In this document: in pieces, positions 15,318 to 44,758 of the stretch
Layout: each line of letters begins with the position of its first letter
Position numbering within the stretch: the stretch's first letter is position 1
Source: a virus
Lineage: Duplodnaviria; Caudoviricetes
IMG/VR virus record: IMGVR_UViG_3300009031_000221
Coordinates: 448,001 to 512,000 of that record
Direction: 5' to 3' (one strand)
Length of the DNA stretch: 64,000 bases
Notes under the pieces: generated by a model
The model's database searches: none
Told to the model about the DNA's origin: nothing
The model's input: only the letters and a program-made list of their open reading frames with translations
Translations under genes and position numbers: made by a program

Positions 15318-16508
15318 TCACTCTCCGCCTGCCTTGAAGTTGTAGATCGGCTTCAACTTGTCCACAACTTCCACCGTGTCACCGATGTAGGACGCCACAT
15401 CTACCGAGTCCTTGTATGCCATCGGCGACTCATCCAGCGTTCCCTGCCCGATGCAAGACGACCATACCCCCGAATCCGCCATGACTTGCTTGAACTCCGT
15501 CACACCAAGCTCTCGCTTTGCCTGCGACCGGGACATCTTGCGTCCCGCACCGTGAGGTGCCGAGTTGTTCCAATCCGGGTTACCCTTGCCCTTCCCGATG
15601 ACCACGCCATCCCGCATGTTCCACGGAATGATGACCGTTTCGCCCAGCTTTGCAGAGATCGCACCCTTGCGGATGATATCGTCATCACCGATGAAGTTGT
15701 GAACCGAGGTCACGATCTCCGCATCGCGGATCTTCACGTCGAAGAAATCCGCCAGGACATCCATCATGACCAACCGGCTCAGCATTGCGAACTTCTGGGC
15801 AATCCGCATGTCCCGCAGATAGCTCTGAGCATCATCGCCCTCGAGCCACTCCAGGCCATTCTTCCTCCCCATGGACGCAACCGCCTTCTTCTGGTGGAAC
15901 TCCGCGATCTTCAGGCCGAAGTTACGGCTACCCGAGTGAACGATGAGCCACAGCGCCTCGTCCAACCCGCGTCCGATCTCAATGAAGTGGTTGCCCCCAC
16001 CCAGGGAACCCGGCTGGCACCACACCTTGGAGATGTCCGAACCGACACGCTGAGCCAAGTTGCCAACGTCCTTCTCGAAGCCCTCCCAGTCCGATCCCCG
16101 GGAGAACCACAGCTTATACAGCCACTCCCGGCGCTTGGACGGGCGCTCCAATGAGGAGAAACCGGAAGGAACGTTCTTCCGTAGGTAGCGGTCGAACTCC
16201 GGCAAAATGGATTCAATCTTGCCAATCTTGTGGCTCTTGGATTCCGTTCCGCCCAGGCGCATCGCCTGAACACCGCAACCAATATCGACGCCAACAACGT
16301 TCGGGATGACCTTATCCGACAGCGGAGACGTGAACCCGACAACCGCACCCTTGCCCGCGTGAACGTCAGGCATGATACGGATTTGGCAACCCGCGAATGC
16401 AGGGCTGTTCAAGAAATCGTAGATCTGAGCAACAGCGTGCTGCTCGATGTCATTCGTGAACACCTTGCAACCGGTGTACTGTCCTTGATATTCCAACGGG
16501 TTTTCCAT
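15318..16508 (-). CDS. rtcB: RNA 3'-phosphate/cyclic-phosphate ligase RtcB
   Basis: MPDVHAGKG, GVDIGCG, GGGNHFIE, VHSGSR, HN, SAPHGAGR, DESPMAYK. Confidence 0.96.
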   Translation of the reverse strand: MENPLEYQGQYTGCKVFTNDIEQHAVAQIYDFLNSPAFAGCQIRIMPDVHAGKGAVVGFTSPLSDKVIPNVVGVDIGCGVQAMRLGGTESKSHKIGKIESILPEFDRYLRKNVPSGFSSLERPSKRREWLYKLWFSRGSDWEGFEKDVGNLAQRVGSDISKVWCQPGSLGGGNHFIEIGRGLDEALWLIVHSGSRNFGLKIAEFHQKKAVASMGRKNGLEWLEGDDAQSYLRDMRIAQKFAMLSRLVMMDVLADFFDVKIRDAEIVTSVHNFIGDDDIIRKGAISAKLGETVIIPWNMRDGVVIGKGKGNPDWNNSAPHGAGRKMSRSQAKRELGVTEFKQVMADSGVWSSCIGQGTLDESPMAYKDSVDVASYIGDTVEVVDKLKPIYNFKAGGE

Positions 16509-17148: not shown

Positions 17149-17175
17149 ATCTACGCTGGACTCTCAGGAAGTAAG
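17149..17175 (-). promoter_or_regulatory. Class A promoter motif
   Basis: Reverse CTTACT-N13-GCGTAGAT. Confidence 0.85.
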
Positions 17176-17982: not shown

Positions 17983-18825
17983 TTACTTTTCATTCGCTTC
18001 GGCATCGGCAACCATCTTGGCGAACTCAGCCTTCCATCCACCGGGGCGCTTACCCAAAGTTCCGATGTACAGAACATCGCCCTTGACAGGGTTAATGGAA
18101 GTCGGGTACTGGTCACGCTGGGCAGAGAACACGGTGAAGTAATAGCCGTTCTTTCCCATCGCCTGCTTCAGGGGGTTGCCAGAATAGTAGACGCGGATAC
18201 GGGATTCGCCCTGTACGTTACCCTTGTCAACATATTCCTCAATCAGCTTGATACGATCAGCAGACGGTGGCTTCGCCGTCTTGTCGCTAATGTAAACCAC
18301 TTCGATCATAGCACGTTGGTTGGCGCCGCCCGCATCCGAAGGGGTGTAACGATACAACCCGGTCTTGCTGCCGGATTCCTTGCCCTCAAAGCGTCCCTGA
18401 CCAAAGTCGCGAACCCCATCAGTGAATGCAATGATAACGGCATCGCCATCTACATCAACGACATTGCCTACCTTGCCGTCAAATTGTTCGCAGATGTCCG
18501 TGTTCTTTGGGTTCGTGTTCTTGGCAGCCTTGCACTCAACCATTTCACCCTTCTCAAGGGGGCCACGGGTTTGCTTGACGCCTTCTTCTTGCATTGGAAC
18601 ATGCAGACGATCCAACACCCTCTGGCATTCGTTCTTATCGAACTTCTCGCCCTTCATGATGCACCATGCGACAAACATTTCACTCTCCTCAGAGAATGAA
18701 AGCTTCGTGGAAGCCAATCGGGCATCCGTGTCCATGGTGTGCTCACGAATCACCGGCATCAGGTGCTCTTGCAACTGAGGGTATTCATGGGCCAAACGAA
18801 TCAGTTGCTTGATACGGTCATTCAT
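17983..18825 (-). CDS. Class B protein with N-terminal LAHxxPxL tag
   Basis: MNDRIKQLIRLAHEYPQLQEHLMPVIREH; class B motif upstream. Confidence 0.8.
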   Translation of the reverse strand: MNDRIKQLIRLAHEYPQLQEHLMPVIREHTMDTDARLASTKLSFSEESEMFVAWCIMKGEKFDKNECQRVLDRLHVPMQEEGVKQTRGPLEKGEMVECKAAKNTNPKNTDICEQFDGKVGNVVDVDGDAVIIAFTDGVRDFGQGRFEGKESGSKTGLYRYTPSDAGGANQRAMIEVVYISDKTAKPPSADRIKLIEEYVDKGNVQGESRIRVYYSGNPLKQAMGKNGYYFTVFSAQRDQYPTSINPVKGDVLYIGTLGKRPGGWKAEFAKMVADAEANEK

Positions 18826-18889
18826 TGTATGCGTCCTTCCTATAGGTCAATGGGGGAGATGCGTTCGGTAGCTCTCCTACAAGCGAACT

Positions 18890-18905
18890 TATAGAAGAGC
18901 TACCG
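18890..18905 (-). promoter_or_regulatory. Class B promoter motif
   Basis: CGGTAG-CTCTT-CTATA; inverted copy CGGTAG-CTCTC-CTACA at 18866..18881. Confidence 0.7.
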
Positions 18906-18922
18906 AATGCGATGATGTATGA

Positions 18923-18949
18923 CTTACTTTACCGATCCACAGCGTAGAT
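18923..18949 (+). promoter_or_regulatory. Class A promoter motif
   Basis: CTTACT-N13-GCGTAGAT. Confidence 0.85.
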
Positions 18950-18988
18950 AGGCTACGGGGCGCATACGATGGCCCGAAGGAACCGACG

Positions 18989-19450
18989 ATGATCAAGCTT
19001 ACCGCCAAGAAGTATCGCCACTTCAACATCGGCCATGAGGGCGGGGCCATGTCCTGCGAACTCTACGTTGATGGCGTTCTGGCGGCACACGTTGAGAACG
19101 ACGGCACCGGTAGCTCGAACAAGTACACCTGGGTCGGCCCCTATGAGAAGTGCCACTCCATCAACGTCCCCGCGGACATCGCGGCACACGTCGAAGCGCA
19201 GCCCGAAGTCGATTACCACGGCTACAAGATGAAGCCCAACTTGGACATGCTGGTTGATGATGCCTGCTACGACTTCCAGATGAACCGCAAATTGACCATT
19301 CGCTGCAAGAAGGTGACGGTGTTCCGCTTCCCGACTGACCCGAAGGATCACTATCGCGAGTACGCCAAGCCCTTCACGCCCGCCATTGCGGCGGCGATTC
19401 GTGCCAAGCACCCGAATGTCATCATCATCAACGAGACCCTGGGGGCGTAG
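18989..19450 (+). CDS. Hypothetical protein
   Basis: 153 aa, GAAGGAA RBS. Confidence 0.8.
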   Translation: MIKLTAKKYRHFNIGHEGGAMSCELYVDGVLAAHVENDGTGSSNKYTWVGPYEKCHSINVPADIAAHVEAQPEVDYHGYKMKPNLDMLVDDACYDFQMNRKLTIRCKKVTVFRFPTDPKDHYREYAKPFTPAIAAAIRAKHPNVIIINETLGA

Positions 19451-19452
19451 GA

Positions 19453-19479
19453 CTTACTTCTAGCCCAATCCGCGTAGAT
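19453..19479 (+). promoter_or_regulatory. Class A promoter motif
   Basis: CTTACT-N13-GCGTAGAT. Confidence 0.85.
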
Positions 19480-19484
19480 AGAGT

Positions 19485-19570
19485 GTGGTGATAGTTTAGT
19501 TGTGAAAACAGCAGGACAACCCAAGCGGCAAACCTGTCATTCGCGGAATCGAAGCCCGCTCACCACCCCA
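19485..19570 (+). ncRNA. tRNA-His-like RNA with 17-nt anticodon loop and degenerate T arm
   Basis: Acceptor GTGGTGA/TCACCAC + C-CCA; D stem GTTT/AAAC; AC stem GCAGG/CCTGT; 5-nt variable loop; T arm GCGGA-ATCGAAG-CCCGC. Confidence 0.75.
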
Positions 19571-19585
19571 AACGAGGTCTATCCA

Positions 19586-20035
19586 ATGAAGTTGAAAACT
19601 TTCCACCGCTACTCCGGGAGTATTACAGTCGCGGAAGTGCCCTGGTACACGTGGCTTTGGGCTCAGTTGTTCCGCCCATTAGGTTTCACCCTTTTCATCG
19701 TCGCATGTGGCTTCGGGATCGCCCAGATCCCGAAGCCCGATTACAGCTATCATCACCACTACGACGGCGTCGAATCCGTGCTGCTCCAAACGCAGCGTTC
19801 GGCTTCATTCATCGTTGTGATGCCCGATGGCACGCGGAAAGTGCAAGGCAATGAGTTCGGCGCCATCACCCTGATCTACGATGTGCCGGAAGGAAAACTT
19901 GGATGGGCGGACGCTACGCGGGATCGCGATTCGAATAATGAACAGGTCGTCATCCACACGCACGCAAAAGATCTGCAAGGCGGGGGCTGGGATCACGGAA
20001 AAGGGGGTAAAGGAACCACGGTACTGATTCCATGA
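19586..20035 (+). CDS. Membrane-anchored hypothetical protein
   Basis: TM segment LFRPLGFTLFIVACGFGIA; GAGG RBS. Confidence 0.7.
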   Translation: MKLKTFHRYSGSITVAEVPWYTWLWAQLFRPLGFTLFIVACGFGIAQIPKPDYSYHHHYDGVESVLLQTQRSASFIVVMPDGTRKVQGNEFGAITLIYDVPEGKLGWADATRDRDSNNEQVVIHTHAKDLQGGGWDHGKGGKGTTVLIP

Positions 20036-20838
20036 ACGAACGACCTCCATGCCGAGATTGTGGGAACTCGCAATACCATGCGGTGTCCTGTGAACATGCT
20101 TTCAGCCCCACGACACCGATCCTATCCCGGCATCGTGCCTATGGCCCATTGCCTTCCATGCTTGAAATATTGATGACGAAAGGAAAACTCATGCCCCCAT
20201 TGCCATCCCTTCGAGACATTTTGCCGGCAGGAACAATCATCACGCCTGTGCGTATGCCTGGGGGACTTCCCCCCCGTCATGACATTCTCATCAATGACTT
20301 CGTTCGTCGGCAGACGGCGGATTCCAAGCATTCCCATTGGATCCTCTCCGATGATGACTTGTTGGAACGCATCGAGGAAGCCTGGAGCCAGCAACGCCCA
20401 GGCTACCGTGATGGTGTCGTACTTGTGCCCGTGAACCCCCAGGGATTCTACACGTCCATCGTGACCCTCCAGGAAGGGGACAAGCTCATTGGGCAATTCA
20501 AGCGCCGCAAGGATGGAGAGGATCCCCGCAAGTCCACGATCAAGGATCGTGGGGACACTCCTTTGGAAGAGCTGAAGCAGCCCGCTGTCCTGGTTGACAT
20601 CATCCTCTACCGGGATGACGTGCTTGCGGAAGACAATGAACAAACAGGCCACGAGTGGAACATCATATCGATCAACGCCTACCCGACGAACGAGATCGCA
20701 CCGATCCACCCGGACGTGTTGATCGCCAACCACTTCCACCTGTCCGGTGGAACTGCCACGGGCATGACCCCAGAGCAGTTCGAGACCCAGATGCGTGAAT
20801 CCGTCCTGTACTGGAAGGACAAGGCAATGGTCGGCTAA
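20032..20838 (+). CDS. DUF3228-like protein
   Basis: GYRDGV..RRKDGEDPRK..VDIILY..W.IISINA..PIHP..NHF..SGGT pattern (recognised from memory); start may be downstream. Confidence 0.65.
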   Translation: MNERPPCRDCGNSQYHAVSCEHAFSPTTPILSRHRAYGPLPSMLEILMTKGKLMPPLPSLRDILPAGTIITPVRMPGGLPPRHDILINDFVRRQTADSKHSHWILSDDDLLERIEEAWSQQRPGYRDGVVLVPVNPQGFYTSIVTLQEGDKLIGQFKRRKDGEDPRKSTIKDRGDTPLEELKQPAVLVDIILYRDDVLAEDNEQTGHEWNIISINAYPTNEIAPIHPDVLIANHFHLSGGTATGMTPEQFETQMRESVLYWKDKAMVG

Positions 20839-21077
20839 TGGAACCCCTTACCCCAGATAAATGCACCAAGTGTAGCGGGGATACCGAAGAATGGTACTGC
20901 TACTGCACATGGGGATGTGAGGGCTGTGGTCTGAACCGTAAATGCCGAAAATGCGGATACGTATTCAAAGTCTACACACCGGAACAATTGGAAGAGAAAA
21001 AGAAGCAACGGCTAATCAGCCAAGCGGCAAGCAAAGCCGGGCATGAGGCTAGACTACGTAGGCAAGGAAAACGATGA
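20838..21077 (+). CDS. Small Cys-rich zinc-ribbon protein
   Basis: CTKC..CYC..CEGC..CRKC. Confidence 0.65.
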   Translation: MEPLTPDKCTKCSGDTEEWYCYCTWGCEGCGLNRKCRKCGYVFKVYTPEQLEEKKKQRLISQAASKAGHEARLRRQGKR

Positions 21078-43667: not shown

Positions 43668-43677
43668 GGGATCCTCC

Positions 43678-43719
43678 AAAAACGCGAACGCCCCGGTTGA
43701 CCTTCAACCGGGGCGTTCG
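43678..43719 (-). terminator. Intrinsic terminator
   Basis: CGAACGCCCCGGTTGA/TCAACCGGGGCGTTCG; U-tract only on minus strand. Confidence 0.85.
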
Positions 43720-43737
43720 TGCAACTAAGGAGGTAAC
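43678..43737 (-). ncRNA. Putative anti-Shine-Dalgarno small RNA (~58 nt)
   Basis: Class A promoter, then UUACCUCCUUAGUUGCA, a 16-bp hairpin and CGUUUUU; no ORF. Confidence 0.65.
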
Positions 43738-43742
43738 ACTCT

Positions 43743-43769
43743 ATCTACGCACTCCAGATAGAAAGTAAG
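43743..43769 (-). promoter_or_regulatory. Class A promoter motif
   Basis: Reverse CTTACT-N13-GCGTAGATAG. Confidence 0.85.
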
Positions 43770-44538: not shown

Positions 44539-44726
44539 GTGCCAATTGCCGAACCTTATGGCTTCTTCTAATCACTCTGGCAAGATCCTAGTGGCTTGCT
44601 TTCCGATTCGGCATCTCTCCTTCTCTCTACTCTGCCAGGAGTAGCTTTTAGGGCGGACTCACGCATCCCATTAATCCAGGGCCCTTCCGGGTAGGGGAAT
44701 CGAACGCCCCGTGCATCATCCGGCAC
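44539..44726 (-). ncRNA. ~190-nt structured ncRNA with predicted loop-loop pseudoknot
   Basis: Bounded by class A promoter and terminator; 5' GUGCC pairs with 3' GGCAC; T-loop-like GGGGCGUUCGAUUCCCC; hairpin loop CUGGCA complementary to UGCCAG. Confidence 0.7.
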
Positions 44727-44731
44727 ACTGT

Positions 44732-44758
44732 ATCTACGCTGAACGAGTGGAAAGTAAG
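44732..44758 (-). promoter_or_regulatory. Class A promoter motif
   Basis: Reverse CTTACT-N13-GCGTAGAT. Confidence 0.85.

Follow-up and report, generated by a model that had tools for sequence, protein, structure and literature searches.

A conserved, non-decoding tRNA-derived cloverleaf at the predicted 5' end of a huge-phage mRNA

The window analysed here (the whole 64,000-nt stretch of DNA) comprises bases 448001-512000 of a 536,053-bp virus record; the public runs that hold this stretch are four DNA runs of one groundwater study, and no RNA run is listed. Within it, an element with the shape of a tRNA is placed between a putative promoter and two genes. The features of the locus are as follows.

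19453-19478, plus strand: core of a putative phage-specific promoter, CTTACTT-N12-GCGTAGA (from pattern counts over the genome)
19484-19487, plus strand: putative transcription start zone, with the pyrimidine-purine steps T19484/G19485 (positions 6/7 after the core) and T19486/G19487 (positions 8/9)
19485-19570, plus strand: tRNA-derived, non-decoding cloverleaf RNA of 86 nt (from the sequence, ARAGORN at 80%, the comparison with an ortholog and a covariance model)
19485-19491 (GTGGTGA) with 19560-19566 (TCACCAC), plus strand: acceptor stem of 7 bp, from the sequence
19494-19509, plus strand: D arm, with a 4-bp stem GTTT/AAAC and the loop AGTTGTGA, from the sequence
19511-19537, plus strand: anticodon-type arm, with a 5-bp stem GCAGG/CCTGT that includes a G.U closing pair, from the sequence
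19516-19532, plus strand: 17-nt loop ACAACCCAAGCGGCAAA, replacing the 7-nt anticodon loop (sequence and ortholog alignment)
19538-19542, plus strand: variable loop of 5 nt, from the sequence
19543-19559, plus strand: deviant T arm GCGGA-ATCGAAG-CCCGC, identical in both phages that carry the element, from the sequence
19567 and 19568-19570, plus strand: C73 and the encoded CCA, from the sequence
19574-19577, plus strand: GAGG, likely to be the ribosome-binding site (8 nt ahead of the ATG, 3 nt beyond the CCA)
19586-20035, plus strand: first open reading frame (ORF) of the predicted transcript, 149 aa; its ATG follows the CCA by 15 nt, and a hydrophobic stretch lies close to its N-terminus
20032-20838, plus strand: DUF3228 gene with a Cys-rich N-terminal extension, the second downstream gene

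No relatives of the 149-aa first ORF were found outside this phage, and the DUF3228 structures available are uncharacterised ones only (2pd0, 4fbd); therefore, the cargo of the transcript gives no functional clue. The DUF3228 proteins of this phage group (window 20032-20838 and, in the second carrier described below, L089:4818-5567) share an N-terminal CxxC...C extension, which gene callers mostly cut off, calling 188 aa versus the 249-268 aa of the extended form. A gene for an RtcB RNA ligase lies 3 kb upstream of the element on the minus strand (window 15318-16508, Pfam E 4e-62). The genome as a whole encodes 68 tRNA genes and a tmRNA according to ARAGORN, most of them clustered at 208-260 kb; these cover 19 amino acids, all but Cys, and a UAA-reading tRNA lies inside the window. 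ARAGORN also reports a tRNA with a four-base anticodon (tgaa) at genome 213498-213586 (plus strand), which could possibly be of the frameshift-suppressor type or another look-alike.

Every item of the cloverleaf that the first-pass annotation had described (the 7-bp acceptor, C73, the CCA, the 17-nt loop and the T loop ATCGAAG) is present in the sequence. The element resembles the canonical tRNA (RF00005) in its acceptor, D stem, variable loop, T arm, core bases and discriminator plus CCA, and its arms have the standard lengths. The core tertiary bases U8, A14, A21, G15-C48, G18-U55, C56, G57 and A58 (standard tRNA numbering) are kept. It departs from the canonical form in the T loop and elbow, where the contacts G19-C56, T54-A58 and G53-C61 are lost through U19, through A54 in place of T54 and through an A53/C61 mismatch in the T arm, as well as in its leaderless start and in the 17-nt loop. 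This loop contains no U in either phage, has neither U33 nor GUG, and may form a CC/GG mini-helix near its apex, around which three variable bases are located. The claim that the element has no usable anticodon thus holds in both carriers: since the loop lacks U altogether, U33 is impossible and the element cannot decode.

Standard tools overlook the element. ARAGORN at default settings makes no call at 19485-19570, and Rfam yields no tRNA match at the gathering score or at E<=10, the element lying below the RF00005 threshold (at E<=10 over 19300-19750, two chance matches were obtained, neither of them tRNA). At an 80% threshold, ARAGORN reports a cloverleaf with ends exactly at 19485-19570, so that the tool check proposed in the first-pass annotation fails for ARAGORN at default settings and for Rfam and succeeds, at the exact ends, for ARAGORN at 80%. 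We then used a covariance model, R1, made of the window element and its one ortholog. With filters off, R1 could be aligned from end to end with 66 of the phage's ordinary tRNAs; it scored highest against tRNA-Lys(UUU), at 41 bits (E 2e-9), followed by tRNA-Ala(UGC) at 39 bits and tRNA-Gly(CCC) at 34 bits, and in each of these the alignment sets the 17-nt loop against the 7-nt loop of the tRNA. Based on this full-length match to the phage's tRNAs, the element is a genuine tRNA derivative and not a chance fold. No second copy was found elsewhere in the phage's own genome. Among the loci of related phages, the best non-self R1 matches are two stop-codon-reading tRNAs, a UUA tRNA at L089:1490-1566 (plus strand), which starts 14 nt after a promoter core, and a CUA tRNA at L085:9961-10036 (minus strand).

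An ortholog is present in one other phage, represented by L089 and L090 (an ENA scaffold of 231 kb) and by a 355-kb contig. It is located at L089:4721-4805, behind the same promoter and again starting at position 7, and it precedes by 12 nt the ATG of DUF3228 itself; the gene that follows the element therefore differs between the two phages. Between the window element and the L089 copy, 17 of 86 alignment columns differ. Six of these differences fall into three pairs in which both bases have changed and pairing is kept (3:80 and 5:78 in the acceptor, 11:24 in the D stem), and at pair 7:76 an A-U is replaced by G.U. The terminal pair of the anticodon-type stem, a G.U that has become A/A, is the only pair broken. 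Three further differences lie at or beside the apex of the large loop, three in the variable loop (including a 1-nt indel), and two turn the CCA into GAA. No change is seen in the D loop, anywhere in the T arm or at 14 of the 17 large-loop bases. When 16 random substitutions were thrown onto the element sequence, an outcome of three or more compensated pairs and no more than one broken pair arose by chance with a frequency of 1.8e-4; this covariation evidence is one pairwise comparison between the two known carriers. The adjacent DUF3228 genes are identical at 68% of protein, 70% of DNA and 49% of third-codon positions, so that silent sites between the two phages are near saturation, while the element itself is 80% identical. 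Based on the compensated stems and on 80% identity in the element versus 49% at silent sites, we conclude that the RNA structure is under purifying selection and that the long loop, the odd T loop and U19 are probably part of what is selected.

These data bear directly on whether the element is a decaying tRNA pseudogene or a functionless chance cloverleaf. Such an origin would account for scores below the ARAGORN default and Rfam thresholds, for folding z-scores that are modest (-2.2 and -1.2) and for the absence of the element from most relatives. It does not sit well with 80% conservation beside DNA that is 49% identical at silent sites, with substitutions that are compensatory, or with two phages keeping the same "defects" together with the element's own promoter, and we consider it very improbable. 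The earlier statement that the element is not subject to simple decay is borne out by the L089 ortholog, which retains every one of the odd features and whose stem changes are compensated, and the covariation to be checked for in related phages is found there as the three compensated pairs. The opposite outcome, a normal tRNA-His in relatives and random decay here, is not what L089 shows. A protein-coding interpretation was also rejected, as the 1-nt indel and the differing spacer lengths between the carriers break any shared frame.

The same comparison can be read in terms of a regulatory leader that is only partly tRNA-like, in which a protein or ligand would control the downstream ribosome-binding site through a D-region hairpin (15-19 with 24-28) or through pairing of GUUGU in the D loop with ACAAC in the 17-nt loop. 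These two motifs are complementary and invariant across the two phages. RNAalifold and the minimum-energy fold of the window element prefer the 15-19/24-28 hairpin, which two one-sided changes fit and which is as compatible with the substitutions as the cloverleaf D region. However, it takes the cloverleaf D stem to account for the compensated change at column 11, the minimum-energy fold of the L089 copy is the cloverleaf, and longer folds taking in the ribosome-binding site have nothing in common between the two phages. We therefore regard control of this kind as improbable.

The tRNA-His label of the first-pass annotation is weak. The element's likeness to tRNA-His stands insofar as G1-C72, U2-A71 and C73 are shared with the tRNA-His of the phage, and falls short in that G-1 and GUG are absent: base -1 is T in both carriers (T19484), while the phage's real tRNA-His has G-1, GUG and CCA. 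Moreover, the GUGG start and the CCA are not conserved in L089, and the D and T arms are closer to the phage tRNA-Ala and tRNA-Lys. With only these three features in common, we do not find a tRNA-His identity convincing. The conservation of C73 in both carriers is nevertheless worth noting because, to our knowledge, C73 in bacteria is confined to tRNA-His.

Another possibility is that the element becomes a decoding tRNA once a 10-nt insert is removed from its loop, perhaps with rejoining by RtcB, and so might supply the missing tRNA-Cys. When introns are allowed, ARAGORN does report a tRNA-Cys(GCA) whose loop contains a 10-nt insert; the genome has tRNAs for every amino acid but Cys, and the RtcB gene is 3 kb away. 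The register that gives GCA here gives GAA (Phe) in L089, so the match between this reading and the missing tRNA-Cys is probably a coincidence. No intron register yields U33, those that keep a conserved triplet giving C33; the insert position, 31/32, is no known intron site, and both T loop and elbow depart from the canonical form. As discriminator the element has C73 in place of the U73 that bacterial tRNA-Cys carries, and there are relatives with RtcB and without the element. Introns in phage tRNAs have been reported, as in the "enigmatic" introns of Lak megaphage tRNAs (Devoto et al. 2019, PMC6784885), with which the element shares extra conserved sequence in the anticodon loop and a phage genome of >500 kb. 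In the Lak tRNAs, however, removal of the insert gives a recognisable type and anticodon, whereas in the element U33 is absent from every register and the two phages have no anticodon in common. We thus see hardly any chance that the element is spliced into a decoder.

Further candidates were weighed. Against a link to RtcB stands its equal presence in relatives that lack the element, including L087 and L091, where it lies in the same neighbourhood. The bacterial Y RNA YrlA has a tRNA-like domain, a Ro/Rsr partner and is often encoded beside RtcB, and the element is like it in being a putative non-decoding tRNA mimic near an RtcB ligase gene. In contrast, YrlA ends in a Ro-binding stem, while the ends of this element form an acceptor stem, the genome has no TROVE/Ro gene and there is no Rfam match; a Y-RNA-type mimic, for which the lead was PMC7824862, was therefore rejected. 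A decoy for anticodon nucleases, which like a modulator of a synthetase or RelA was among the roles conjectured earlier, is disfavoured and appears unlikely because a 17-nt loop without U, found in both phages, is unlike the anticodon loop of any tRNA.

The element starts at a promoter of a type that is widespread in this genome. The pattern CTTACTT-N12-GCGTAGA has 135 matches in a loose form (spacer 11-14, up to one mismatch per half), compared with 7-8 in shuffled genomes, and 127 copies in a strict form (spacer 12, at most one mismatch overall). A standard sigma-70 scan did not pick up the core, and we hence take the promoter to be phage-specific. Within the window, copies are found for example at 1406, 4297, 5862, 8341, 18923 and 19453 on the plus strand and at 17175, 17543, 28693 and 29842 on the minus strand, and the related phages L087, L089, L092 and L094 use the same promoter. 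The 33-nt block at 19449-19481, which comprises the promoter with its spacer, recurs with 97% identity at genome 338578-338610 (minus strand), and this suggests a recent duplication of that promoter copy. Many copies of the promoter are followed by a hairpin of the type GGGCAC..GAYGATGCCC, then by an AGGAAC-like ribosome site and an ATG. At 43669-43769 of the window (minus strand), a promoter is followed by a short transcript with an anti-Shine-Dalgarno-like GUUACCUCCUUAG, a strong hairpin and a T run, which is a candidate small RNA. At 44640-44758 (minus strand), it is followed by a leader with a T-arm-like hairpin GGGG-CGTTCGATT-CCCC; a second tRNA-derived leader at 44640-44727 on this strand was rejected, as it folds no better than shuffles and offers a weak hint only.

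The bases that follow GCGTAGA point to the start site. Among the 127 promoters, a pyrimidine stands at position 6 in 110 cases and at position 8 in 89, and a purine at position 7 in 110 and at position 9 in 105; positions 10-12 are G-rich, forming the foot of the 5' hairpin in many of the listed transcripts. At the element, these two purine positions correspond to G19485, with which the acceptor begins (position 7), and to G19487 (position 9). Given the pyrimidine-purine steps at 6/7 and 8/9, transcription probably starts at acceptor base 1 or 3, and the assertion that the element starts at a class A promoter is upheld, its core lying at 19453-19478 with the element beginning at position 7 after it. 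Where a real tRNA of the phage has such a promoter within 400 nt upstream, it begins at position 39 at the earliest and 336 at the latest, and the leaderless placement thus seems peculiar to this element within the phage. Leaderless tRNA genes that start at +1, need no RNase P and yield a 5' triphosphate were reportedly described by Randau and colleagues in 2008 for Nanoarchaeum equitans. There too the promoter is placed for a start at tRNA position +1; however, those are working tRNAs in an archaeon without RNase P, whereas the element is a single, non-decoding look-alike in a phage whose real tRNAs have leaders.

On its 3' side, the element runs into the downstream gene. A scan for terminator-like sites on the plus strand within 18800-21000 found none, no terminator separates the element from the ORF, and the distance to the start codon is 12-15 nt in both phages. 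With no terminator, and with GAGG and an ATG just after the CCA, the element would head an mRNA. In any read-through transcript from the promoter at 18923, it would be internal.

The DUF3228 gene made it possible to follow the locus in other phages. Its homologs are many, some on contigs of 0.2-0.5 Mb, and we fetched the syntenic regions for about a dozen DUF3228-bearing relatives (protein-guided loci L085-L102 and L128). Their gene order is DUF3228, a BtpA-like gene and thymidylate kinase; upstream, RtcB is often found on the opposite strand. Among the relatives examined, only the L089/L090 phage has the element; in the others, the upstream gene runs straight into DUF3228, so the operon can do without the element. 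A search with R1 of 21 whole IMG/VR records with DUF3228 gave no match, an empty result that proves little, and blastn of the "phages" collection gave no match to the element. Two different pattern pairs, matched exactly against IMG/VR and JGI metagenomes, returned nothing or one chance match inside an ORF (L127), while promoter-pattern scans with the GTGG start returned zero matches and scans with the core alone single chance matches.

This layout raises the question of whether the element acts purely in cis, as a 5'-terminal module that protects the mRNA end or as punctuation at which RNase P or RNase Z would cut read-through transcripts from the upstream promoter and so set the 5' end, stability or translation of the mRNA. 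The element starts a few nucleotides from where many other transcripts carry their 5' hairpin, and its occurrence in place of that ordinary hairpin by itself fits a purely cis role. It is held 12-15 nt from the start codon in both phages though the next gene differs, it has no terminator of its own, and none lies between it and the upstream gene in the window. The sequence layout also shows what characterises a t-element, a tRNA-like fold that abuts an mRNA end and is co-transcribed with it. However, a hairpin already protects the end at other promoters, and a full cloverleaf needs another reason; the processing enzymes need no anticodon arm, yet 14 of 17 bases of the large loop are invariant; and the cut would give the mRNA an unstructured leader with a 5' monophosphate, a state in which bacterial mRNAs are usually less stable. 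We consider either form of this cis role possible but on the whole unlikely. Plant-mitochondrial t-elements would be its closest precedent: these tRNA-like cloverleaves at mRNA ends are thought to be cut by RNase Z or RNase P, and stable t-element RNAs have been detected to which C or CCA had been added (Forner et al. 2007, PMC1920247). The likeness lies in a non-canonical tRNA-like fold placed directly at an mRNA end and co-transcribed with it. T-elements differ in residing inside long organellar transcripts and in having a canonical T arm, GGTTCRANYCC, while the phage element is predicted to begin at the first base of its transcript, has a deviant T loop and a conserved large loop, and its cleavage is a prediction.

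Based on these findings, we tentatively favour a different proposal, to which we assign a probability of roughly 45%: that a copy of a tRNA has been turned into a selected, non-decoding mimic that is released from the mRNA and serves as a competitor or regulator of a tRNA-handling protein. A tRNA core with a 7-bp acceptor and a discriminator is most simply viewed as a putative substrate for tRNA-handling proteins. In addition, the invariance of the D loop, the T arm and 14 of 17 bases of the large loop suggests a product with a partner of its own. For RNase P, RNase Z and CCA-adding enzymes, the acceptor/T-arm half of a tRNA suffices. We favour a released mimic over a role in cis because the large loop and the D loop are invariant although processing needs only that half.

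Under this proposal, the transcription start would be acceptor base 1 or a base no more than 2 nt from it; no RNase P cut would then be needed, and the RNA would carry a 5' triphosphate. The element would be made as the 5' end of the operon mRNA, and the tRNA 3'-end machinery of the host or phage would then cut after the discriminator or the CCA, with RNase Z acting where the CCA is not encoded (as in L089), RNase E and exonucleases acting where it is encoded, and a nucleotidyltransferase adding CCA. A stable RNA of about 83-86 nt would be released as the main product, and the mRNA would keep a short leader carrying a monophosphate. Through its tRNA body the RNA would contact a tRNA-handling protein, the invariant large loop, the D loop and the altered T loop would give specificity, and the released RNA would be a competitor or regulator and not an adaptor.

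The 3' ends of the two copies are in keeping with such processing. Only about one third of the phage's tRNA genes encode CCA (as counted from the tRNA list), and a nucleotidyltransferase domain of the PolyA_pol/CCA-adding type is encoded at genome 148264-148713 (minus strand), in an open frame reported as 1808 aa; therefore, the difference between CCA here and GAA in L089 fits ordinary tRNA 3' maturation. Since this pattern is like that of genuine tRNA genes matured at their 3' ends, cleavage after the discriminator or the CCA is to be expected. It should be noted that recognition by tRNA enzymes is not assured given the altered elbow contacts (G19-C56, T54-A58 and G53-C61). When the phage genome was searched for sequences antisense to the 17-nt loop, the matches were at chance level only.

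We further speculate that the RNA could serve two purposes, a 5'-triphosphate mimic released by 3' processing neutralising a host factor that recognises tRNA, while the cut itself times a nucleotide-metabolism operon. The U-free 17-nt loop and altered elbow would in that case bind a defence nuclease or sensor, or a tRNA enzyme. This dual use appears to us distinctly unlikely.

Several known RNAs resemble parts of what is proposed here. The tRNA-miRNA leaders of MHV68, which are cut by RNase Z, and the mascRNA of MALAT1 are likewise tRNA-shaped, non-aminoacylated RNAs joined to a functional RNA and split from it by tRNA-processing enzymes; they differ in being eukaryotic and Pol III or nuclear, and in having miRNAs or a lncRNA as partners, not a bacterial-type mRNA. 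Non-decoding tRNA look-alikes are also found in phages, among the stable RNAs of T4 and T5, and the insert-bearing Lak tRNAs mentioned above belong with them. What is new is the combination of a 17-nt U-free loop, an altered elbow, a predicted leaderless start at a phage promoter and a predicted fusion to an mRNA.

Huge phages carry dozens of tRNAs, and this element provides a clean, small case of an RNA that is clearly tRNA-derived, selected and non-decoding. If it is used in cis only, tRNA-processing enzymes would shape phage mRNAs, as they do in plant mitochondria. Should the RNA be released and bind a host factor, it would represent a new type of phage counter-measure or regulator, and a dual-purpose RNA, if true, would be of a kind not described for bacteriophages.
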